Positions 2,727-24,647 of a stretch of 27,906 nucleotides of DNA are shown here, piece after piece (positions within the stretch are counted from its first letter, which is position 1; every line of letters begins with the position of its first letter). The stretch covers positions 1 through 27,906 of the forward strand of contig JAHLWH010000217.1 of assembly GCA_019058015.1 (NCBI GenBank), given 5' to 3'. The position numbers were made by a program, and so were the translations under genes. This DNA is from Promethearchaeota archaeon (GTDB lineage Archaea; Asgardarchaeota; Lokiarchaeia; Sigyniarchaeales; SOKP01). The notes under the pieces were generated by a model. That model was given only the letters and a program-made list of their open reading frames with translations, ran no database searches and had not been told where the DNA came from.

Positions 2727-3269
2727 TTAAAAATCCATTTTTGCATGTTTTTTCTTACTTTCTTCAAGAAGGATTTGAGCCAAAACTTCGAATGCTTTTG
2801 CTACATTTTGACCTGTCTTTGAACTTAACTCAACAAATGATCTCATGTTGTATCTCTTTGCAGCATTTATACCATCCTCTCTTTTCACAGCTCGATATTC
2901 AGTCAAATCAGCTTTTGAACCAACCAACATTAAAGGAACATCTCCTGCATTTTCTCGTACAATATAACTCCAGTCCGGTAAATGTGATAGACTAGTAGGA
3001 TGTGTTATGTCATATAGAATAAATGCCCCACTAGCTCCTTTGGAGTACTGCGGGAGTAGAAATCTGAACCTTTCTTCACCTCCAAAATCCCAAAGTTGAA
3101 GTTTTATCCGTTCCCCGTTAAAAAGCACTGATTTAGAAAAGAAATCCACTCCAATAGTGAGCCTTAGATCCTCTACAAAAAATCCTGAGATATATCTTAA
3201 AGTTAGTGAAGTTTTTCCGACCGATGCATCCCCAAGCATAAGGACTTTAAATGTATAGTCTGATTCCAT
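2727..3269 (-). CDS. Rab-like small GTPase (Ras superfamily, Asgard eukaryotic-signature type)
   Basis: G1 GDASVGKTS, switch I TIGVDF, G3 WDFGGEERFR, G4 GSKAD, G5 SSK. Start placed at ATG 3269 (MESDYTFKV); the ORF track extends to 3350. No C-terminal Cys. Confidence 0.92.
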   Translation of the reverse strand: MESDYTFKVLMLGDASVGKTSLTLRYISGFFVEDLRLTIGVDFFSKSVLFNGERIKLQLWDFGGEERFRFLLPQYSKGASGAFILYDITHPTSLSHLPDWSYIVRENAGDVPLMLVGSKADLTEYRAVKREDGINAAKRYNMRSFVELSSKTGQNVAKAFEVLAQILLEESKKKHAKMDF

Positions 3270-3482
3270 TAATTTTTCCGTATTTTTTTTTAATATGGCA
3301 ATTACAATTAATATTAAAAGAAATATTTTGATAATATATTCTTTATACATTATTTATATTACTTATCGAGTTAATAAATTTTTTTTATTATTTGAATAAT
3401 GATATTGATGTTCTACATTTCTGACAAATTTCAATTCCCTTTTGCATTCAAAAGTTCTTGTTCATTCTTTCTTAGAGTTTAA

Positions 3483-4136
3483 TTAAAATAAAAATAGCAA
3501 AGTATTAAAAGTTGCATGTGTCACTACAACGGGAATAAGTGAATAATTAAAGTTTTTAAATAATAATACTAAAATCATACCAAAGATGAAATAATATCCA
3601 AAATATGTAAATATTGTTTGGAATGGGACTAGAAATGGAGGAACATGATATAGGGCAAAACAGAAAGATGATAGAAATATTGCTATAATTCTATGGTTTT
3701 TCTTATAGAATCTCTTAGCAATAAAACCCCGAAAAAACCCTTCCTCACAGGGAGCGATAATTACCATTTGAAGAATAAGAATAATTAACATTTCCAACAT
3801 ATTTGGGGAAACTGGAGTTGTATCTATTGCTCCTTCTTCTGCATTTTGTAAAAATTCAGAACCAAATAGATTTTCTGTTATTATGTATTTAAAAAATATT
3901 ATAAGATAATCTGCTATCAGCAAAAAAATAACTCCTATTGATAATCCAACCAAAATTTTGAAAGTTTGTTTTCTAATATTTTGTTGACTTTTTGTAAAAC
4001 CAATTTCCAATAATTCATCTTTGAAAGAACACTTATCTGGAAATTTTGCGATTAAAGCCGGTATAACAATGAAAAATATTTCAAATAATATTAAAAAAAT
4101 CAAAATAATTGGTTCTTGTCCTAAATTTAGCGACAT
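3483..4136 (-). CDS. CPBP family intramembrane glutamic endopeptidase (Abi/type II CAAX protease, Rce1-like)
   Basis: Multiple TM segments; motifs EEGFFRG, FALYH, THATFN. Confidence 0.9.
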   Translation of the reverse strand: MSLNLGQEPIILIFLILFEIFFIVIPALIAKFPDKCSFKDELLEIGFTKSQQNIRKQTFKILVGLSIGVIFLLIADYLIIFFKYIITENLFGSEFLQNAEEGAIDTTPVSPNMLEMLIILILQMVIIAPCEEGFFRGFIAKRFYKKNHRIIAIFLSSFCFALYHVPPFLVPFQTIFTYFGYYFIFGMILVLLFKNFNYSLIPVVVTHATFNTLLFLF

Positions 4137-4950: not shown

Positions 4951-5574
4951 ATGGCAGATATAAATAATTCTCAAGAAGTAAATGAAATTATATTAGATTA
5001 TAAAATAAATAATGTTGTTGCAACAGCAAAAATAGATCTTATTGAAAAAATAGATCTTGTTAAAATAGCGCGAAAATTACATGATGCTGAATATCATCCA
5101 GAAAGATTTCCTGGAGTCATCTTTAGGCAAGATAATCCTCGAGCTACATTTTTAATTTTTTCAACTGGTAATATGGTGGTTACCGGACTTGAAATTGTAG
5201 CAGATGCAGAGAAAGCAGTTAGTAAATTATTAAAAAAGGTAAAAAAGATTGGAATTAAATCATCTAATCCCGAAATTGTTATTCAAAATATTGTTGCAAA
5301 TGGTGATTTACATACACTTATAAATTTAAATAAAGCAGTATTACTAATTGAATTTGTTATGTACGAACCTGAAGTCTTTCCAGGATTAATTTATTATATG
5401 AAAGATCCCCGTGCTGTATTTCTACTATTTTCTACTGGTAAATTTGTTTGTACAGGGATTAAAGAGAAGAAAATTTTAAAAAAAGCTATTTTAAAGTTAA
5501 AACGAGAGATTAATAATATGGATGTAACTAGTGAAAAAGTTATCGAAGATGAATTTGAGTTAACATTTCTATAA
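4951..5574 (+). CDS. tbp: TATA-box binding protein
   Basis: Two TBP repeats: YHPERFPGVIFR/LIFSTGNMVVTG and YEPEVFPGLIY/LLFSTGKFVCTG. Confidence 0.96.
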   Translation: MADINNSQEVNEIILDYKINNVVATAKIDLIEKIDLVKIARKLHDAEYHPERFPGVIFRQDNPRATFLIFSTGNMVVTGLEIVADAEKAVSKLLKKVKKIGIKSSNPEIVIQNIVANGDLHTLINLNKAVLLIEFVMYEPEVFPGLIYYMKDPRAVFLLFSTGKFVCTGIKEKKILKKAILKLKREINNMDVTSEKVIEDEFELTFL

Positions 5575-7137: not shown

Positions 7138-9435
7138 ATGAGTGTAAAGAGAATATATCATCCAAATTTGCAAAATATTGCTTTTATTGGCAATTATATA
7201 CCACGCCAATGTGGTATTGCGACTTTCACAAACGATCTTTTACAAGCAGTTTCAAAGGAATTACCAAAAAGTAGTTGTTGTGCATTAGCAATGAATGATA
7301 AACCTGAGAGTTATCCTTATCCTAATCAAGTTCGCTTTGAATTAAATGCTAATCGATTGAAGGATTATTCACTAGCTGCAGAGTTTCTGAATGTTAATAA
7401 AGTTGATGTTGTTTGTCTGCAACATGAATTTGGCATTTATGGAGGAGATAATGGAAATTATATTTTAACATTACTTCGTAACTTACATATGCCGATTGTA
7501 TCAACACTACACACTCTTATACCGAATCCCCAACCCAAAATTAAAAAAATTATTAAAACAATAGGTAGACTATCAGATCGTTTAATAGTTATGAGCCATC
7601 AAGCTAAAACGCTTTTACAAGAAGACTATGGGATACCTGCTGAAAAAGCTAATGTAATTCATCATGGAATTCCAGATATTCCATTTATAGACCCAAATTT
7701 TTTTAAAGATCAATTTGGAGTTGAAGGGAAGGATGTCATTTTAACTTTTGGTTTAATTAACCCTGGCAAAGGGATAGAGACAATGATTGATGCCTTGCCT
7801 AAAATCGTTAAAAAACATCCAAATGTGACATATATTGTACTTGGTGCTACTCATCCAAATGTAAAGAAAGAACATGGCGAATCATATCGTTATTCTCTTC
7901 AAATCAGGGCTAGAGAGCTTGGTGTAGAAGATCATATAATTTTTTATAACAGGTTTGTAGAATTAGAGGAGTTATGTGAATTTTTAGGAGCTGCTGATAT
8001 TTATGTAACTCCATATATAAACAAAGAGCAAATTGTCTCTGGCACACTTGCTTATGCTCTTGGAACTGGTAAAGCTATCATTTCTACACCTTATTGGTAT
8101 GCTGAGGAAATCTTAGAGGATGGAAAAGGAATAATAGTACCCTTCAAGAATCCAGAAAGCATAGCTGATCATATTATTAACCTACTAGATAACGAAAATG
8201 AGAGACATATTATGCGAAAAAAAGCCTATATATTTTCTAGAGATATGGTTTGGAAAGAGGTTGCTCGAAATTATATAGAGATATTTGCAGAAGTTGTTGA
8301 AAAAAGATTATCAGAACCAAAAACCATTTTAAGGATAAAATCATTACGAACTTCACCATTCGATCTACCTCAGCCAAAATTTGATCATCTGGATAGGTTA
8401 ACAGATGATGTTGGTATTTTACAACATGCTAATTTTATAATACCCAATCGAAAGCATGGTTATAGCACAGATGATAATGCGAGGGCATTAATTGTAGTAC
8501 TTTTAGCTCAAAATTTATTAATTGAAGATGATTTATTAGAGAATCTTGATTGTCGCTATTTAAGTTTTTTATTGCACGCCTTCAACGAAAAAAATGGTCG
8601 ATTTCGCAATTTTTTAGGATATGATCGTAAATGGCTTGAAGATGAAGGATCTGAAGATAGTCATGGTCGGGCTGTCTGGAGTTTAGGAATTACAGTAGCC
8701 TTATCAAAAACAAAAGAGTTCGGGGATCAAGCTTTAAGAATTTTTGATAGAGCTGTGTCAGTTCTTTCAGAATTTAAATCTCCTAGAGCTTTAGCTTTTG
8801 GTTTGATAGGAATTCATGCTTATTTAGCTAGATTTGGAGGAGATAGCAAAATAAGAAGATTTCGAGAAAAAATAGCGAATCATTTATTTGAACTATATTG
8901 TTCAAATGCTAGTGATAAGTGGCCATGGATAGAGAACACTTTAACTTATGATAATGGAAAAGTTCCACAAGCTTTAATGATGTCTGGGCAATGGTTACAG
9001 CGAGGAGATATGGTTAAAGCTGGATTAAGGTCATTAGAGTGGTTAATTAAAGTTCAAAAGAATCCTAAAGGACACTTTACTCCAATCGGTAATTCTGGAT
9101 GGCATCTACGTAACGGAGAAAAAGCGAGATTTGATCAACAACCTCTTGAAGCTGAGAGTATACTTGAAGCATGTATTGAGGCATTTAAAATTACTCAAGA
9201 TAAAAAATGGATTAAAGAAGCACGTCATTGTCTAGAATGGTTTTTAGGTCGAAACGATTTGAATTCTTCACTTTATAATTATAAAACTGGAGGATGTTAT
9301 GATGCTTTAACATCTACAGGTCCCAATATAAATCAAGGGGCAGAATCAACATTAGCTTGGTTATTAACCCTTCTAAATATGTATTCGTTAGATAATTTAA
9401 CTGAGATTGATTTAACAGAACAAATAAGTGAGTAA
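7138..9435 (+). CDS. GT4 glycosyltransferase fused to a C-terminal putative (alpha/alpha)6 glycosidase-like domain
   Basis: N-half PRQCGIATFT, QHEFGIYGG, SGTLAYALGTGKAIISTPY; C-half HGYSTDDNARAL, EDSHGRA, FDQQPLE, NQGAESTLAW. Confidence 0.88.
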   Translation: MSVKRIYHPNLQNIAFIGNYIPRQCGIATFTNDLLQAVSKELPKSSCCALAMNDKPESYPYPNQVRFELNANRLKDYSLAAEFLNVNKVDVVCLQHEFGIYGGDNGNYILTLLRNLHMPIVSTLHTLIPNPQPKIKKIIKTIGRLSDRLIVMSHQAKTLLQEDYGIPAEKANVIHHGIPDIPFIDPNFFKDQFGVEGKDVILTFGLINPGKGIETMIDALPKIVKKHPNVTYIVLGATHPNVKKEHGESYRYSLQIRARELGVEDHIIFYNRFVELEELCEFLGAADIYVTPYINKEQIVSGTLAYALGTGKAIISTPYWYAEEILEDGKGIIVPFKNPESIADHIINLLDNENERHIMRKKAYIFSRDMVWKEVARNYIEIFAEVVEKRLSEPKTILRIKSLRTSPFDLPQPKFDHLDRLTDDVGILQHANFIIPNRKHGYSTDDNARALIVVLLAQNLLIEDDLLENLDCRYLSFLLHAFNEKNGRFRNFLGYDRKWLEDEGSEDSHGRAVWSLGITVALSKTKEFGDQALRIFDRAVSVLSEFKSPRALAFGLIGIHAYLARFGGDSKIRRFREKIANHLFELYCSNASDKWPWIENTLTYDNGKVPQALMMSGQWLQRGDMVKAGLRSLEWLIKVQKNPKGHFTPIGNSGWHLRNGEKARFDQQPLEAESILEACIEAFKITQDKKWIKEARHCLEWFLGRNDLNSSLYNYKTGGCYDALTSTGPNINQGAESTLAWLLTLLNMYSLDNLTEIDLTEQISE

Positions 9436-14164: not shown

Positions 14165-16206
14165 TTAATCTGGTAATTTTTTATTGTTAATCATATTTAA
14201 GAAATCCTTTTCTTCAAGAATTATCATATTATCTCTTTAGCTTTATCAAATTTTGACCCAGGATTCTTTCCAACAACTAAATAATCTGTTTCCCTACTCA
14301 CATTAGAAGTGACTCTCCCACCATATTTTTTTACTTCTTTGGAAGCTTCATCTCTAGTATATTTATCTAAAGCCCCTGTAAATACGAATTTTTTTCCCTC
14401 TAAGAAATTATTAAATTCTTCCTTCTCAGCAATCATATTAATCCCATGCTGTCTTAACTGTTGGATTAATTCACTGTTTTTTTCTTCATTAAAAAAATTT
14501 ACAACACTCTTTGCTATTTTTGGACCGATTCCATCAATTTTCTCTAATTCTTTGGGGAAAACATTCATTAATTCTTCAATATTGCTATAATGTTCGGTAA
14601 GAATTTGAGCTATATATTCACCAACGAAAGGAATACCCAATCCAAATATTAATCTCCAAAGGGCTCTCTCCTTGCTATTGTTAATCGCTTCTAAGAGATT
14701 TATGGATAATTTTTTTCCCATCCTTTCAATTTTTCTAAGTTCTTCTACTTTTAAGTCATAAATATCGGCTATATTTTTTACTACGCCCTTATCAACTAGT
14801 TTATTTAATAATTGTGGACCTAAACCCTCTATATTCATGACATTTCGGGAACCCCAATGCTCGATTCTTTGTTTTATTTGTGCAGGACATTGAGAATTCA
14901 TACATCTTCTAATTACTTTACTCCCAATCATTTTAGCAGCACTACCACAGATGGGGCATCTTTGTGGCATTTCAAATTTATTTTCACTATCATCTCGGTT
15001 CTTTTTAATTGCTTTAATAACTTGAGGGATAATTTCTCCTGCTTTTTCCACTAAAACTGTATCTCCTATACGTATATCTTTCTGTCTTATTTCTTCTTCA
15101 TTATGTAACGATACTCTGGAAACCTGTGTTCCTGAAAGTTTAATCGGTTCTAAGATAGCAACAGGAGTTAATTTACCGGTTCTACCCACCATAATTTCAA
15201 TATTCTTAATCTTGGTTGTTTTTCTTTTAGGTGGATATTTATATGCCATTGCCCATTTGGGATGATGTTTTGTTGTTCCTAAAATTTCATGTACTTTTAA
15301 ATTATTTACTTTTATTACAATTCCATCAATTTCATAATTCAAATCTTCAATTTGATTCCTAAATCTTTCAATATATTTCATAACTTCTTCAATTCCATCC
15401 TTTCTAATAACTTTATCATTAATCCTTAATCCTGCTTTTTTAATCTCATCAATTTTTTCCCAATGAGTCTTAAAATTATCATCCTCATAATAACTAATTG
15501 AGTAAATAAAAATATTAAGTGGACATTGAGCAACTTTTTTAGGATCTTTGTTTCGGACTGTTCCTGCAGCAGCATTTCTTGGATTAGCAAAAGGTTCTTT
15601 TACTTCTTTTATTCTCTTTTTATTCATTTCTCTAAAAGCATCTTTAGGCATATAAACTTCTCCTCTAAATTCAACATTATTTAAGAAGGTATCAACAGTT
15701 AATTTTAAAGGATTAGACTTTATAGTTTTTAAATTTGGAGTAATATCTTCTCCTTTAGAACCATCACCCCAAGTGGCCCCTCTTTTGAAAATCTTATTTT
15801 CAAAATAAAGTGCTACTCCCAATCCATCAATCTTCGGCTCCACTACATATTATATTTTTTTTTCTCCAATTTTTAGTCTGATTTTTTCATCAAAATCTCT
15901 TAAATCTTCATAATTATTGCTTTTATCTAAACTAAGCATCTTTCTTTTATGTTCCACAGTTTCAAACTCTTCTATTTTTTCAGCACCCACTCTTTGAGTT
16001 GGTGAATCTTCAGAGATATATTCAGGATAAGTTCTTTCAAGAGATTCTAATTCCTTATAAAGTTGATCATATTCATAATCGCTAATTACTGGATTAACTT
16101 CTATATAATATTTTCTATTATTATAGCGAATTTTTTTTTTTAATTCTTCTATTCTCTTTTTTGCATCTTCTTTATTTTTAGGAATTTCAAATTTGTGTTT
16201 TGACAT
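14165..16206 (-). pseudogene. ligA: NAD-dependent DNA ligase, disabled
   Basis: ISDYEYDQL, SPTQRVG, EPKIDG, ANPRNAAAG, EIDGIVIK, VGRTGKLTP, Zn finger CPICGS..C..C, HhH, BRCT. In-frame TAA at 15852-15850; frameshift near 14231 hides the BRCT end NMIILEEKDFLNMINNKKLPD* (stop 14165). Confidence 0.92.
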
Positions 16207-16426: not shown

Positions 16427-16756
16427 TTAACTTTCAATTAAGATATTTTCTTCAGGAAATCCCTCTTTTATAAGAAACTTCTTCAGTCTAAAGCGGTGTT
16501 CTCCTTGTAATTCAATATGATTATCTCCAAATGTCCCACCAGACGCGCATTTTGTCTTCGCTTTAGTGATGAGTTTATCTAAATCAATATTAAAATCACC
16601 ATTAAACTTAACAATGGTAACTATTTTCCCCCATCTCCGTTTTTCATTATAAATTTTTATTTGTTGTTCTTCAGCTTCTAATATTTCACATATACATAAC
16701 TCCTTAGGAAAACTACATACAGGACAAATATTCTTATCTTTAATTTTAATAATCAC
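16427..16756 (-). CDS. Translation initiation factor aIF1 (SUI1 homolog); true start may be ATT 16744
   Basis: ICPVCSFPKELCICE, KRRWGKIVT, CASGGT, IELQGEHR. Confidence 0.93.
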   Translation of the reverse strand: MIIKIKDKNICPVCSFPKELCICEILEAEEQQIKIYNEKRRWGKIVTIVKFNGDFNIDLDKLITKAKTKCASGGTFGDNHIELQGEHRFRLKKFLIKEGFPEENILIES

Positions 16757-16850
16757 CTCTTTTACAATTTTATATTTATAATTTTAAAAATATTTAATAG
16801 AAAGGAAATCTTTTTCTTTTTTTTTTTAACGAGAAAACTCTTTTTATTTT

Positions 16851-17124: not shown

Positions 17125-18033
17125 TTAATTTAATACCTCTTTAATGTCCTTTAATCTAGTTCTTAAAGTCACTTCAGTAATTTTAGCGATATCTGAAACT
17201 TCAGTTTGGGTCTTTCGATGCTTAGTAGATCTTGCTACCATATATATCGCAGAAGCAGCAAATCCTTTTGGATCTTTTCCATTTGTAGAAAGCCCTTTTA
17301 TAGAGGATGTTTTGAGTAACTTCAATGCTTCTTTTTGTGTTTTGAAAGGAATTTTTAACTTATTTCCAAATCTAAATACCAATTGTTCTGATGTGATTGG
17401 TTTATATTTGAGATTAAGTTCTGGTAAAACTTCTTTAATTAATATTCCTAAAGAGCGAATAACTGTTCTTCGAGAAGTTACACATGCCTTGCATATTTCT
17501 TCCAATAGTCTAGGAATTTCATGAACTCGAATCGCAGCATATAAGGAAGCCGATACAAAACCATCTATTGATCTACCCATTGTTAATTTCTTTTTTGCAA
17601 CCGATATATAAATTCTCCAAGCTGTTTGATAAACATATTCAGGAATATTTAATTTAGAAACAAGTAGTTTCATTTTAGGTTTAGCGTCCCATAAATTTCT
17701 TTCTATTCCCGAAGTTAAAGATCTTTGTATTTTTGATAAACGTTTGAATAATAGTTTTCTTTTAGCATTAATATGATGACCATTAGAATCAACATTATTA
17801 TTTGGAAGTAGGGTTCTGGGACCAAAATTTCTCCATTTTACTTGCGTTCTTTTCCTTTTTCTTAATTCATCAGATGTGAAAGCTCTTCTCTCTTTTCTAA
17901 TTAATTGATTACCAAAAACCATACCACAATTTATGCATATAATTTGACCATTTCTTAAATCCACACATTGATTTTCACAACATTGTTCCTTTTTATTTAA
18001 TTTAGAAAAGCTTTTTTCTTTATAATTACTCAT
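17125..18033 (-). CDS. tfb: Transcription initiation factor IIB
   Basis: N-terminal Zn ribbon CC...ICINCG, ERRAF, cyclin repeats MGRSIDGFVSASLYAAIR and GKDPKGFAASAIY, TQTEVSDIAKITEVTLRTR. Confidence 0.94.
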   Translation of the reverse strand: MSNYKEKSFSKLNKKEQCCENQCVDLRNGQIICINCGMVFGNQLIRKERRAFTSDELRKRKRTQVKWRNFGPRTLLPNNNVDSNGHHINAKRKLLFKRLSKIQRSLTSGIERNLWDAKPKMKLLVSKLNIPEYVYQTAWRIYISVAKKKLTMGRSIDGFVSASLYAAIRVHEIPRLLEEICKACVTSRRTVIRSLGILIKEVLPELNLKYKPITSEQLVFRFGNKLKIPFKTQKEALKLLKTSSIKGLSTNGKDPKGFAASAIYMVARSTKHRKTQTEVSDIAKITEVTLRTRLKDIKEVLN

Positions 18034-20058: not shown

Positions 20059-21324
20059 ATGATAGAACAAGGTATGATTAAAAAGAATCATTCAAAAGGC
20101 TACTCCAAACAAGAAAGATCAATTGGCACAACCAAAGAACGGTGCTTAACTGATGATTTAACCAAAATTGCTAAAGAATTTTCAAGTATTGAGAAGACTA
20201 AGCAATCTTTTGCGCAACTTATTCGAAATCAACTACCAAATCTTGATTTTTCTGAATACATAACATTTTACAGTTATCGTATTAAAGAGATGTCCTTGGT
20301 AAAACCAGTGAAACCCACAAGTATTAAGGGGTTAAGGATTGCAGCAGTTGATGGAAGTCTTGTTACAAAAAAATTCCAGGGGATTGATTTAATCTTCTTG
20401 AAATCTATCGTGGTAAAATATTTCTTTACAAGTCAACATTCTGCAGAAATAAAATATTATCCTGATGTTAGCGGCTATAATAATTATTCTATTCAAACTA
20501 ATTATTTCAATATTAATGAAAATGGCATTGATCTAACTGGGTCTTTAGAGCAAACTTTCATGGAAATAAATCAATTAAATTCTATCCTAAAAAATAATGA
20601 TGAATATATTGATTTAATAATTTTGGACGGTTCAATCCTTGTTACTCCTATCAATTTATTATTTTCGAAAAATTATGAAATTTCTAAAAGATATGACCGA
20701 GTTCTTAGAGAATATAGAAACCTCTATAAAAAATGTCAAGAGAGAGGTATCACATTAGTCGGCTCAATTAAAGATACTCGAACGGCAGCTTTAACTAATA
20801 CACTTACTCAAACTATCCAAATGTTAATTTCTGGAAAAAAAATACTTCATGAGTTCTTAAAAATTAATTATCGTGAAATAATGAATTATTTTTCAGATTA
20901 TGATCTCTTTTCGAGAGTATTAAATGTAGGAGAAAGAAGTTGTGCTTTTAGGTGTAATACTGATATTGATAAGATAAGACATACTAATATTAAGAAGAAT
21001 ATCCCAAATTACTTTCCTGTAGATTTTTTTGCATTTTACTTAAAAAATGTCCCTTATGATAACCCATTAAGAATAGAATTTTTTTTAGATGAGACCCATA
21101 ATATTAAAGATATTTCGAAAAAAGCAGATTTAATTGCATCCATAATATACCCGCTTTCAAATCTTAATAAAAATTATGGAATTCCGATCCCTCAAATAGA
21201 ATCTCACCAAAGGTCTGTCTTTAAATCTAATGAGATAAATTTAATCTTTAATTCATTAAAAACACTCTTACACAAATATGGTATCTCTTTTTTTGAAAAA
21301 AGAAGAAATCGACGACCATTTTAA
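20059..21324 (+). CDS. nurA: NurA-family 5'-3' nuclease
   Basis: IAAVDGS, IILDGSI, VGSIKD, LRIEF, YGIPIPQIESH motifs. Confidence 0.88.
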   Translation: MIEQGMIKKNHSKGYSKQERSIGTTKERCLTDDLTKIAKEFSSIEKTKQSFAQLIRNQLPNLDFSEYITFYSYRIKEMSLVKPVKPTSIKGLRIAAVDGSLVTKKFQGIDLIFLKSIVVKYFFTSQHSAEIKYYPDVSGYNNYSIQTNYFNINENGIDLTGSLEQTFMEINQLNSILKNNDEYIDLIILDGSILVTPINLLFSKNYEISKRYDRVLREYRNLYKKCQERGITLVGSIKDTRTAALTNTLTQTIQMLISGKKILHEFLKINYREIMNYFSDYDLFSRVLNVGERSCAFRCNTDIDKIRHTNIKKNIPNYFPVDFFAFYLKNVPYDNPLRIEFFLDETHNIKDISKKADLIASIIYPLSNLNKNYGIPIPQIESHQRSVFKSNEINLIFNSLKTLLHKYGISFFEKRRNRRPF

Positions 21325-21326
21325 AA

Positions 21327-22004
21327 TTAAACTCTTGTAATACGATGTAAAATAATATCTTCAAAAAAAAAATGAATTTTTATTAAAATTTTTAGTTCAA
21401 ACCCCAATTTTTCTATTTTTGCATAAAGTTCATCAAGAGGTGAATTACTTGAAAATAAGAAATATATATAAGGTTTTTCTATAGGAGATAAAAATTCTAT
21501 AGATTGAACTAAAAATTTCTCAAAAGTTTCTGTCCCACTTTTTCCCCCCATCCAGCTATAAAAAATTTTTTTTTTATTTGTTGTTTTAAAAATTAACTCG
21601 GAAGGTAAGTAAGGAGGGTTGAAAAAAATAATATTAAATTTATGTTTTAATGAAATAGGAAAATTATTAAAAAGATTAGAGTGGATAAAGACAATTTGTT
21701 TCTCTAAACCATTTTTTTTGGCATTTTTTTTCGATAGTTTAATTGCATCTAAGAGGATATCAGAGGCGTAAATCTTAATATTCAAACCTAAATTGGATTT
21801 AAAATATTTTGCAAAAAAAATGGCAATTATTCCTGTACCTGTGCCCATATCGAGTATATATGATATTTTATTTAATTTTATTCCATCAATATTATCTTTA
21901 TTAATAAATTGCTTGAAATATTTCAAAAATAAGTAAGTATCATCTAAAGGTTTATATACATTTTTATTAAAATCTAAGTTTAATTCCTTAGATATGTCAT
22001 CCAA
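21327..22004 (-). CDS. HemK2/PrmC (Mtq2-like) SAM-dependent glutamine methyltransferase
   Basis: VYKPLDDTYL, LDMGTGTG, FNPPYLP, FFFEDI; canonical position after ksgA. Confidence 0.9.
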   Translation of the reverse strand: MDDISKELNLDFNKNVYKPLDDTYLFLKYFKQFINKDNIDGIKLNKISYILDMGTGTGIIAIFFAKYFKSNLGLNIKIYASDILLDAIKLSKKNAKKNGLEKQIVFIHSNLFNNFPISLKHKFNIIFFNPPYLPSELIFKTTNKKKIFYSWMGGKSGTETFEKFLVQSIEFLSPIEKPYIYFLFSSNSPLDELYAKIEKLGFELKILIKIHFFFEDIILHRITRV

Positions 22005-22029: not shown

Positions 22030-22923
22030 CTAATCCTTATCCCACAACTCTTTTAACTTAATTAATTTTGCAATTTTTAGGAGGTCATCTTTCGAAAATG
22101 CTCTAACTTTTTTCTCTTTCTGATTACCTTCTAATAGATTATATATTTCATTTCTTCCAACCTTAAAAATCCTAAGATATAAATATAAAGCTTTTGAAAT
22201 ATTTTTATTCTTATATGGAAAAATCCCTCTTAATAAATCTAAATATATTTTTCTATTATTCTTATCTTTTAAAAAAATATCAATCTTGTGATGAGGTATA
22301 AGTTTAATCATAGATAATTTTATTTTTGGAACAGGATAAAAACAATGTGGTGGAACTTCTTTAATTATTGTAGGTTTTACAAACGTATTCACGGATACAC
22401 TCAAACGGCTATAATTTTTATCATTTGGTTTCGCAACTATTCTCTTAGATAAACTTTCTTCAATAATCATATATGCTTCAGGAATTTCTTCCATCATAAG
22501 AATTTTTGAAATAATAGGTCCTGTCATTGTATATGGAATATTTGAAACAACTTTATTATAAAAAGGAATTTTAATTTTTAAAAAATCTCCATGAATTAAA
22601 TTTAAATTCTCCTTGTTTGAAACAAATTTCTTCAAGAAGTTATAAAGTTTGAAATCATATTCAACTGCATGTACTTTTTTTGCATTTTGAATTAAAATAA
22701 ATGTTAGTCCTCCTAGTCCAGCCCCTATTTCTAAAATCTCATCATGATTTTTTGATAATTTTGCCTCTAAAATTAATCGATTTGCAGTATTTTTATCTGT
22801 TAAAAAGTTTTGTCCTAATCTCTTTTTTGGAATAAGATTTAATCTCTTTAAAATCATTTCAGGTTTAAATGGATCCCAATTTGAATTTTCTTGATTTAAA
22901 TTCGACATTTTTTGTATTGCCAT
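22030..22923 (-). CDS. rsmA: 16S rRNA adenine dimethyltransferase KsgA/Dim1
   Basis: LGQNFL, LEIGAGLGGLT, VSNIPY, YSRLSV, FYPVPK. Confidence 0.95.
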   Translation of the reverse strand: MAIQKMSNLNQENSNWDPFKPEMILKRLNLIPKKRLGQNFLTDKNTANRLILEAKLSKNHDEILEIGAGLGGLTFILIQNAKKVHAVEYDFKLYNFLKKFVSNKENLNLIHGDFLKIKIPFYNKVVSNIPYTMTGPIISKILMMEEIPEAYMIIEESLSKRIVAKPNDKNYSRLSVSVNTFVKPTIIKEVPPHCFYPVPKIKLSMIKLIPHHKIDIFLKDKNNRKIYLDLLRGIFPYKNKNISKALYLYLRIFKVGRNEIYNLLEGNQKEKKVRAFSKDDLLKIAKLIKLKELWDKD

Positions 22924-23015: not shown

Positions 23016-23744
23016 TTATTTCTGAAATTTTTCACGTCTTAATTGAGAACGACGTCTTTCATATCTTGGTGAGAATTGCCTTCTAGAATCAGTTCTAACT
23101 TGTTCATATCGTTGGGTTTTTGAGAATATATAATATTTTACATCTCGACTTAATTCTTTAATAATTAATTTTACCAAAAGATGAACTGGGTCTGAGATAC
23201 TTGTTCTTTGAGACATATCTTTGAAAGATTCAAATTTCTTTATATTTCTTAATTTAATTATCTCCCACATTAATTTATTCCCTATTCCTGGAATTAATTG
23301 AAGTTGGTGCAGTCTTGGTGTTATTGAAACCGAATTATTAAAAAAATATAAAAATTCTTCTGCTTTTTCTTTAATTCTTTCTTCTAGAACCGAATGCAAT
23401 AAAGCTTTAGATGTGGGAGTTAAATCATTATGATCAATTTTTTTTGTTACTTTTCCTAATTTATGAGATTCTCTGAAATCTCCGTAAATCCCTCTGTCTT
23501 GAACTTTTAAATCCGAATCTCTAATATATTCTACTTCATAAAGAACGAAATCTTCGAGACTTATTAATTGAACAATGGGTCTCTGTTTATGCATTGGCAC
23601 ATCATTTGAGAAGTGGCCATGCAAAAGAATATCAAGGATTTGAATAACTCTATCTTTCTTTATAAATTGACTTTTCCCTTTTTCTCTCCCTCTAGGAGAT
23701 TTATCTCTTCTATTTTTTGAATACCCTAAATCCCTATTACTCAA
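23016..23744 (-). CDS. DUF655 (COG1491) putative RNA-binding protein with Arg/Ser-rich terminal extensions
   Basis: ILDILLHG, FFNNSVSITPRLHQLQLIPGIG, KYYIF; canonical position between rpo4 and ksgA. Confidence 0.88.
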   Translation of the reverse strand: MSNRDLGYSKNRRDKSPRGREKGKSQFIKKDRVIQILDILLHGHFSNDVPMHKQRPIVQLISLEDFVLYEVEYIRDSDLKVQDRGIYGDFRESHKLGKVTKKIDHNDLTPTSKALLHSVLEERIKEKAEEFLYFFNNSVSITPRLHQLQLIPGIGNKLMWEIIKLRNIKKFESFKDMSQRTSISDPVHLLVKLIIKELSRDVKYYIFSKTQRYEQVRTDSRRQFSPRYERRRSQLRREKFQK

Positions 23745-23921
23745 TATAAATCAACTTAACGCTTAGAAAATTTCGCCTATATTAGTTTATCAGGAAATAT
23801 TTTTTAAAATTTCTTTAAGTTATGATTCATTCATTTTACAATAATTTTCTATAAACTATTTAAATATTTAAATCTTAATTTGGAAAGATTTGAAATAATA
23901 GAATTAGAATGCATTAAGACA

Positions 23922-24287
23922 TTATTTTGCTTTAATTTCATTTATTTTATATAAAATTTCTTGCAATTTATCTGAATCAAAATTTTTCCCTTCTGAACTT
24001 TTTTCGAAGATAGTTTTTAATTCCGGGACGGTCTGCGGATTTATATTTGCTACATTCACAGCAAAAACACGTTCAAGATTATAATCCTCCGAAAGCATTT
24101 TTATTATCTCTAAAGCTTGCTTCTCAGAAAATTTAGAAAATTTTGAAACATATTCTAATGTTATTTGCTGGAAATGAGAGATCTCTTCCGTTGTTCCTGA
24201 ATCAATAACTGTTTTTTTGAATTTTTCCATTAATTCTTTAACTTCCGGAATTGATAGAATTTTTTCATCTATTAATTTTCGACTAAT
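23922..24287 (-). CDS. rpo4: RNA polymerase subunit Rpo4 (RpoF/Rpb4); extended to putative ATT start
   Basis: SRKLIDEKILSIPEVKELM N-terminal motif, LEYVSKFSK, VANINPQTVPELKTIF; position after rpl21e. Confidence 0.9.
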   Translation of the reverse strand: MSRKLIDEKILSIPEVKELMEKFKKTVIDSGTTEEISHFQQITLEYVSKFSKFSEKQALEIIKMLSEDYNLERVFAVNVANINPQTVPELKTIFEKSSEGKNFDSDKLQEILYKINEIKAK

Positions 24288-24341
24288 TTTTAATACCCCT
24301 TTAAGATTACTAATTATGGATAAATTACGGTTTCACTCAAT

Positions 24342-24647
24342 TTAAGATAGAGCTCCGGTGCTAAGACGTAAATGTTCTTTGCCAACAATAATCATTTTTT
24401 TAGCATTTCCAATTTTTAGCTGAATCTCGTAACACCGACCACGTATCCCAATAACTGTTCCTGTTTTCCCATGAAATCGTCGATGTGGCATACCCCGTTT
24501 ATGGGCACCAGAATTTGTTATAATATCAACTTTATTTCCAATTTCAAAATCAATTAGATATTTTTCTATTGAGCCTAATCCCCGTTTTCTCACATTCTTT
24601 CTATGAAGCCTTCGAGTTTTATTTCTATATCCTTTATGTAATGTCAT
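24342..24647 (-). CDS. rpl21e: 50S ribosomal protein eL21
   Basis: KGYRNKTR, GMPHRRFHGKTGTVIG, EHLR. Confidence 0.97.
   Translation of the reverse strand: MTLHKGYRNKTRRLHRKNVRKRGLGSIEKYLIDFEIGNKVDIITNSGAHKRGMPHRRFHGKTGTVIGIRGRCYEIQLKIGNAKKMIIVGKEHLRLSTGALS

Follow-up and report, generated by a model that had tools for sequence, protein, structure and literature searches.

A probable AUU start codon for rpo4 in a small clade of Asgard archaea

The rpl21e–rpo4 locus

We analysed 27,906 nucleotides of contig JAHLWH010000217.1 from a Promethearchaeota archaeon (the whole stretch is hereafter called the window), which has a G+C content of 28.8%. L21e, Rpb4 and DUF655 domains were found on consecutive minus-strand genes, and the same order recurred in the alignment with the related loci L001–L004. 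The order rpl21e–rpoF–DUF655 is typical of archaea. The features of this region are as follows (window coordinates).

24342..24647, minus strand: rpl21e (ribosomal protein L21e), upstream cistron of rpo4, with an ATG start and a TAA stop (24344–24342)
24288..24341, minus strand: rpl21e–rpo4 spacer of 54 nt, which holds an in-frame TGA (24335–24333)
24295..24300, minus strand: Shine-Dalgarno (SD)-like AGGGGT, likely ribosome-binding site, at −13 to −8 from the A of ATT
24285..24287, minus strand: ATT, proposed AUU initiation codon of rpo4, aligned with Met1 of relatives
24231..24284, minus strand: 18 extension codons (SRKLIDEKILSIPEVKEL), Rpo4 N-terminal arm and first half of helix 1
24228..24230, minus strand: internal ATG (Met20), the start used by gene callers
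23922..24287, minus strand: full rpo4/rpoF coding sequence as proposed, for the Rpb4 homologue of the RNA polymerase stalk, 121 codons and TAA (23924–23922)
23016..23744, minus strand: DUF655 gene with a TTG start, downstream of rpo4 (Pfam PF04919, E=3.9e-47)
22030–22923, minus strand: KsgA-type rRNA dimethylase gene (Pfam PF00398, E=2.7e-49)
21327–22004, minus strand: methyltransferase gene, last of the rpl21e–rpo4–DUF655–KsgA row

The upstream cistron was identified as rpl21e through Pfam PF01157 (E=4.2e-28) and NCBIfam NF003303 (105.8 bits; cut-off 97). Its TAA is followed by two sense codons, the in-frame TGA (24335–24333), 34 sense codons and ATG 24230. A codon-by-codon reading of the minus strand from this TGA to the ATG found no ATG, GTG or TTG among the 34 sense codons, as the sequence-only reading had claimed, and the first canonical start is codon index 34 of the rpo4 stop-to-stop open reading frame. 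The ATT at 24287–24285 and the 18 codons after it read ISRKLIDEKILSIPEVKEL. An Rfam scan of the whole window returned no match, and the window lacks 16S rRNA, initiator tRNA and rpo7 genes. The spacer that separates rpo4 from DUF655 holds, at about 23833–23881, a block of about 49 nt (aaattaagatttaaatatttaaatag...tgtaaaat) that is identical in the window, L001, L002 and L003, is partly kept in L004 and exceeds the flanking coding sequence in conservation. This block has no Rfam match and is probably the promoter (TATA/BRE-like) of a DUF655–ksgA unit.

The N-terminus of Rpo4 across relatives

Translated from the ATT, the product matched the Rpo4 family profile (Pfam PF03874) at 51.2 bits (cut-off 25.6) over profile positions 2–115 of 116; the 102-residue form that begins at ATG 24230 scored 47.8 bits and matched positions 31–115 only. 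All eight sub-models of PRK14981 (NCBIfam RpoF) matched the ATT form from model position 2, near the model start, with 30.9–50.5 bits, below the equivalog cut-offs of the eight models (133–183 bits); these models were presumably built on other archaeal lineages. Residue 2 of Thermococcus kodakarensis Rpo4 aligns with residue 1 of the query, and residues 3–103 of Pyrococcus furiosus Rpo4 align with query residues 2–101.

The predicted Rpo4 fold needs this N-terminus. The AF2 model, with an input alignment of 27 rows and a mean pLDDT of 89.8, is six-helical; helix 1 spans residues 13–29, so that in this model a start at Met20 would remove the N-terminal arm together with 7 of the 17 residues of helix 1. 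Residues 11–20 average a pLDDT of 92 and residues 1–10 a pLDDT of 62. Foldseek matched the model to P. furiosus Rpo4 (8orq_F) with E = 5.4e-6 and a TM score of 0.80 over 121 columns. Solved Rpo4 structures from Thermococcales and Methanocaldococcus (8orq_F, 4qiw_F, 1go3_F) match the fold at full length (TM 0.75–0.80, 118–121 columns) and resemble the window Rpo4 in that the N-termini agree within one residue and the lengths are about 107–122 aa, although sequence identity is only 23–24%. The N-terminal arm of Rpo4 binds Rpo7, a point that we do not use as evidence; the passages found on Rpo4–Rpo7 contacts do not describe the N-terminus among the residues touching Rpo7.

A word-indexed protein search yielded 14 matches from 30 candidates, and these fall into two groups. 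All seven relatives at 87–99% identity are calls of 102 aa with the internal Met as their start. The other seven, at 52–80% identity, are 119–123 aa long; six begin with MS(R/K/G)... and P0005 begins with MEISRK. The N-termini of P0003, P0004 and P0010 read MSRK(L/T)I(D/E)EKILS(I/V)PEVK, and the 19 residues encoded by the codons in question match P0004 at 17 of 19 positions, which bears out the claim that they form a typical Rpo4 N-terminus.

A scan of species-representative genomes gave 25 loci, one of which (L025, Nezhaarchaeales) was set aside as its match begins only at residue 35. At three of the remaining 24 Asgard loci, L001, L002 and L003 (protein identity 96, 94 and 88%), the aligned codon is ATT. 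These are GTDB species representatives from three isolates with independent assemblies. In the window and in all three (4/4 clade members), the stretch from the TGA to the Met20-type codon holds no canonical start, Met20 is present and rpo4 is intact over 121 codons; the clade is known from metagenome-assembled genomes (MAGs) only. The other 21 of the 24 Asgard loci have an ATG start and encode proteins of 120–121 aa beginning with MS(G)RK, MSKK or MLGRK. An alignment of N-termini and codons across Asgard relatives, the check that had been proposed for AUU initiation, placed the ATT in a column that is ATG in 20 of these 21 loci; the exception is L005, with its ATG one codon upstream. Nine loci have their ATG six codons upstream of the start of the tblastn match. 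It is this homology to Met1, rather than the open frame, that lifts the signal above chance.

The segment between the two candidate starts is conserved. SIPEVK is identical in 24 of 24 Asgard loci, and among the 21 ATG-start relatives the majority fraction is 0.87 at residues 2–19 and 0.79 at residues 20–121. The Met20 column is invariant in both alignments, including proteins that start 19 codons earlier, which marks it as a long-standing internal residue rather than a start that took over from a lost one. Farther afield, a profile search over 1.84 billion representatives retrieved 344 proteins at E ≤ 0.001. By hand count, 8 of the best 150 of these 344 begin (residue ≤ 5) at profile position ≥ 11, and four of the eight are short fragments. 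The start of P0217 falls at the PEVK position inside helix 1; that of P0241 comes shortly before helix 1 and leaves it whole.

In a maximum-likelihood tree with 27 rows, made up of the window, 19 loci and 7 database proteins (L025 was left out, as were L011, L012, L014, L016 and L022, judged close to kept rows), the four ATT rows formed one clade (support 99/96). The nearest rows were the ATG-start proteins P0003, P0004 and P0010, plus P0005. As the ATT rows are monophyletic, the simplest history is one change from ATG to ATT on the stem of the clade. P0005 (123 aa, MEISRK...), which groups with the ATG-start protein P0003 (support 97/89), has Ile at the old start position and Met two codons upstream; the start Met of rpo4 appears to have been lost here a second time, independently, with a new upstream ATG.

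Variable sites among the window and L001–L003 were distributed as follows.

54-nt extension: 2/54 (gat>gaa and cta>ctt, both third positions), no indels
rpl21e–rpo4 spacer: 6/54, plus a 1-nt deletion in L003
Remaining rpo4: 41/306
Third positions of the rpo4 core and rpl21e: 47/203
Spacer after rpo4: 36/257, with 51 gapped columns

At the third-position rate, the binomial probability of two or fewer variable sites in 54 is 1e-4, and at the spacer's own rate it is 0.02–0.05; a direct comparison of the extension with the neighbouring spacer (2/54 versus 7/54), which involves four close sequences only, gives a Fisher p of 0.08. The pattern fits a translated segment, the contrast with the adjacent spacer being weak. 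Indels occur in the non-coding stretches on both sides of rpo4; the extension is without them. With the L003 deletion, the rpo4 frame is interrupted upstream of about codon −12. This bears on a further feature of the locus, in that rpl21e and rpo4 share a reading frame in the window, L001 and L002 (with TAA, two codons, TGA and 15 codons between them). The common frame is probably a coincidence, given that it is broken in L003.

Likely ribosome-binding site and choice of start codon

The SD-like AGGGGT reported 7 nt before the ATT was confirmed at 24300–24295; in L002, the motif is AGGTGT. We scored SD pairing between positions −18 to −4 and an 11-nt canonical archaeal anti-SD, a general motif not taken from this genome, which is consistent with GGAG, AGGTGG, GGAGG and GGTG upstream of rpl1, rpl10, rpl12 and rpl11. 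The P. abyssi SD given in PMC6237735 (GGAGGUGAU) also agrees with it. The duplex at ATT 24287 reaches −6.4 kcal/mol, which places it in the top 4.8% of the 55,766 positions scored in the window; this is similar to rpl1 (−6.6) and weaker than rpl10 (−7.8) and rpl12 (−10.0 kcal/mol). The SD of rpl1 (GGAG at −12 to −9) is in the same register as the AGGGGT before ATT, and the likeness in spacing that had been noted for rpl10 and rpl12 holds as well (AGGTGG at −13 to −8 and GGAGG at −13 to −9, respectively). ATG 24230 is preceded by an SD-like GGAAGU (−4.1 kcal/mol, top 13.9%), and other in-frame ATA and ATT codons pair at −0.2 to −1.8 kcal/mol. A look-alike near 17140 (aaagaggtattaaa) was discarded as a second SD; it is C-terminal coding sequence of TFB (KEVLN*).

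About 6 of 26 window genes have SD pairing of −5.8 kcal/mol or better, which indicates that SD use is selective in the window and agrees with the remark in a review that SD motifs are not prevalent in Prometheoarchaeum (PMC7531240). Upstream of rpl21e there is no SD-like motif (duplex only −1.3 kcal/mol), which fits rpl21e as the first cistron and rpo4 as an SD-led internal cistron. When all 25 rpo4 starts are compared, pairing is strongest at the four ATT loci (−6.4 to −7.0 kcal/mol versus +0.2 to −5.8 at the 21 ATG loci). This is consistent with an SD that makes up for a weak start codon, as suggested for non-AUG starts by Belinky et al. (PMC5622118), with the four loci representing one evolutionary event, not four. 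RNA of the initiation region is less structured than shuffled sequences (z = +1.34; of 200 shuffles, 190 fold with equal or greater stability).

ATT is among the start codons of NCBI table 11, and two other codons that come earlier in the frame were considered. ATA 24317, the first start under the table-11 list, was rejected: it lies upstream of the SD, pairs at −0.7 kcal/mol, is out of frame in L003 and is beyond the N-terminus of all relatives. ATT 24314 is excluded as a conserved start by the frame-breaking indel in L003.

Non-ATG starts are common in the window, including in core translation genes. TTG starts were found for DUF655 (23742–23744; its first ATG is 52 codons in), rpl11 (120–122, with GGTG upstream and a 10-nt spacer) and the methyltransferase gene (22002–22004), and GTG starts at 9428, 10673 and 16756. 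The last of these belongs to the aIF1/SUI1 gene (16427–16783, minus strand), in which the stop-to-stop open reading frame has no ATG and the start is GTG 16756 inside gagGTGat. In the alignment, 109-aa aIF1 relatives have their M or V start at this GTG, on which ground a start at an ATT behind GAGGTGAT was rejected for the window. Among 120 listed aIF1 relatives, the N-terminal Cys (zinc) knuckle is partly or wholly missing from many calls, and these include calls on long contigs of 0.9–1.8 Mb (P0077, 1.8 Mb; P0096, 959 kb; also P0088 and P0091). Judged from sequence, non-canonical aIF1 starts could be being missed in other Asgard genomes.

Probable initiation at AUU, its alternatives and known AUU starts

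The ATT homologous to Met1, its presence in 4/4 clade members, the SD register and the intact extension support the proposal of AUU initiation, and we consider it probable that SD-guided initiation takes place at AUU 24287 on an rpl21e–rpo4 transcript, giving a full-length Rpo4 of 121 residues. An ancestral ATG would have been replaced by ATT a single time, in the common stem lineage of what are now at least four species-level genomes. On the mRNA, which probably carries rpl21e as well, the SD-like AGGGGU 7 nt upstream would position the small ribosomal subunit with AUU in the P site. Initiator Met-tRNA would pair with this codon, the third-position mismatch being accepted, and the protein should begin with Met. 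Discrimination by aIF1 leads us to expect an output from AUU that is low and aIF1-sensitive, and the strong SD may partly offset this discrimination. The internal AUG (Met20), with its moderate SD-like pairing, could also be used. Initiation at AUU predicts peptides such as (M)SRKLIDEK or LIDEKILSIPEVK, and initiation at Met20 predicts a protein that begins with MEKFKK and would lack the segment SRKLIDEKILSIPEVK.

The main alternative is that the start codon has been lost and that the clade makes only a 102-residue Rpo4 from AUG 24230, the conservation upstream reflecting recent divergence or another role of the RNA. This AUG is the first canonical start and has moderate SD-like pairing (−4.1 kcal/mol), aIF1 is reported to reject AUU, and the extension does not differ significantly from the adjacent spacer in conservation (p = 0.08). 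However, both substitutions in the extension are at third positions and it carries no indels, whereas the flanking non-coding stretches do. The residues given up would include the invariant SIPEVK in what is the best-conserved part of the Asgard proteins (0.87 versus 0.79), and Met20 itself lies midway along predicted helix 1, as an invariant internal residue of ancestral origin. Among distant Rpo4 representatives, a few do start nearby (P0217 and P0241), but P0241 retains the entire helix 1. Taken together, these points make a solely truncated subunit unlikely.

Full-length or nearly full-length Rpo4 might also be reached by other routes, namely from ATA 24272, ATT 24260 or ATT 24251, or by re-initiation after rpl21e with relaxed codon choice. 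Several in-frame ATA and ATT codons are available and rpl21e ends 54 nt upstream on the same strand, yet these near-cognates have no SD-like pairing (−1.6 to −1.8 kcal/mol), starts at them would delete residues conserved in all relatives, and only ATT 24287 matches both Met1 and the SD register; we regard such routes as very unlikely. Hardly credible is an artefact, be it a sequencing or assembly error (with G as the true base), a decaying pseudogene or an L21e–Rpo4 read-through fusion. An AT-rich genome (28.8% GC), probably assembled from a metagenome, speaks for such a reading, but ATT is also found in three other assemblies from different isolates, and the 121-codon gene is intact in all four genomes. 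The fusion draws on the single frame shared by rpl21e and rpo4 in the window; ribosomes would have to read through TAA as well as TGA, and the joint frame does not survive the indel in L003. We rejected it on these two stops and this break.

Initiation at AUU 24287, the preferred reading, has precedents outside rpo4. The best known is bacterial infC, which encodes IF3: as described in PMC4705826, a core gene-expression gene starts with AUU downstream of an SD, as proposed for rpo4, and IF3 discriminates against AUU, the archaeal counterpart being aIF1. The two cases differ in that the infC product is the discriminating factor itself, which provides autoregulation, whereas Rpo4 is not an initiation factor. 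Autoregulation of the infC type is not found for rpo4, the product of which is an RNA polymerase subunit, with aIF1 encoded by a separate gene at 16427–16756. Moreover, AUU is here confined to one small clade, with AUG in the other 21 Asgard loci, and the rpo4 AUU may be a tolerated, SD-compensated substitution rather than a conserved device.

Within Asgard archaea, a "rare ATT start codon" was inferred in 2026 for AtubA of a Kariarchaeaceae (Heimdall-group) MAG. According to that report (PMC13394414), an upstream ATT restores a conserved structural element at a plausible ribosome-binding-site distance, and the case was made from a short N-terminus, an alignment and the ribosome-binding-site distance, the same type of evidence as for rpo4. 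AtubA is a different gene from a different class and genome, and its ATT was inferred for a single operon in that text. Unlike that ATT, the one in rpo4 is conserved in four species-level genomes and placed on a tree; both are inferred starts. In ebpA of Enterococcus faecalis, an ATT upstream of the annotated ATG extends the protein, and the rare codon attenuates expression (PMC4447247). That gene differs in being an experimentally tested bacterial pilus gene in a regulatory or virulence setting; rpo4 encodes a core polymerase subunit.

The archaeal reviews consulted list AUG, GUG and UUG alone as starts (PMC7531240). Switches from AUG to AUU are very rare: Belinky et al. found one in 61,358 reconstructed AUG starts (PMC5622118). 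Near-cognate codons accounted for about 30% of the putative alternative start sites in Haloferax volcanii, and the authors left these near-cognate sites aside (PMC7261190). Within the limited library searched, neither a report on the start codon of rpo4 nor an archaeal AUU start with experimental proof was found; on archaeal AUU or ATT starts, it yielded only the AtubA case and the H. volcanii remark on near-cognate sites. On sequence grounds, the rpo4 ATT is a well-supported candidate for a clade-conserved AUU start in a core gene, of a kind already known from table 11, infC and AtubA.

The factor expected to oppose such a start is aIF1. As reported in PMC4705826, the Sulfolobus solfataricus 30S complex binds an AUU mRNA without aIF1 and only an AUG mRNA with aIF1; the discrimination against AUU is also mentioned in PMC6237735. 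AUU rejection in vitro, the GUG-started aIF1 of the window and the cut-off aIF1 calls in Asgard genomes together raise the idea that the rpo4 AUU ties synthesis of the stalk subunit to aIF1 stringency, in an Asgard circuit similar to those of IF3 and eIF1 with Rpo4 as an output. We regard this circuit as a long shot.

If AUU is the start, a codon kept in four species would be a natural substrate for probing the strictness of aIF1-dependent start selection in Asgard archaea, the archaea most closely related to eukaryotes, and it would be so in a core transcription gene. For annotation, the public calls (the seven relatives at 87–99% identity) would be missing the first 19 residues of Rpo4, comprising half of helix 1 and SIPEVK, and structural, phylogenetic or interaction work on the 102-aa entries would start from a truncated subunit. 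Gene finders limited to ATG, GTG and TTG would miss real N-termini in these genomes.

Several other genes in the window deserve mention. TBP, TFB and NurA genes are present (4951–5574, 17125–18033 and 20059–21324). The gene for an NAD-dependent DNA ligase (LigA; 14224–16206, minus strand) is interrupted by a single in-frame TAA at 15852–15850, just after an A9 run and five codons ahead of the KxDG adenylation motif. With the stop read as X, the gene encodes 660 residues, with one continuous adenylation-domain match covering profile positions 3–253 of 253 (E = 1e-86), followed by OB, Zn, HhH and BRCT domains; the interruption could reflect a pseudogene, an assembly error or a split gene. A gene for a Ras-family small GTPase (PF00071, E = 7.8e-44) adjoins one for an Rce1-like CAAX protease (PF02517) on the minus strand (2727–3350 and 3483–4136), a pairing of eukaryote-like functions that fits an Asgard genome.
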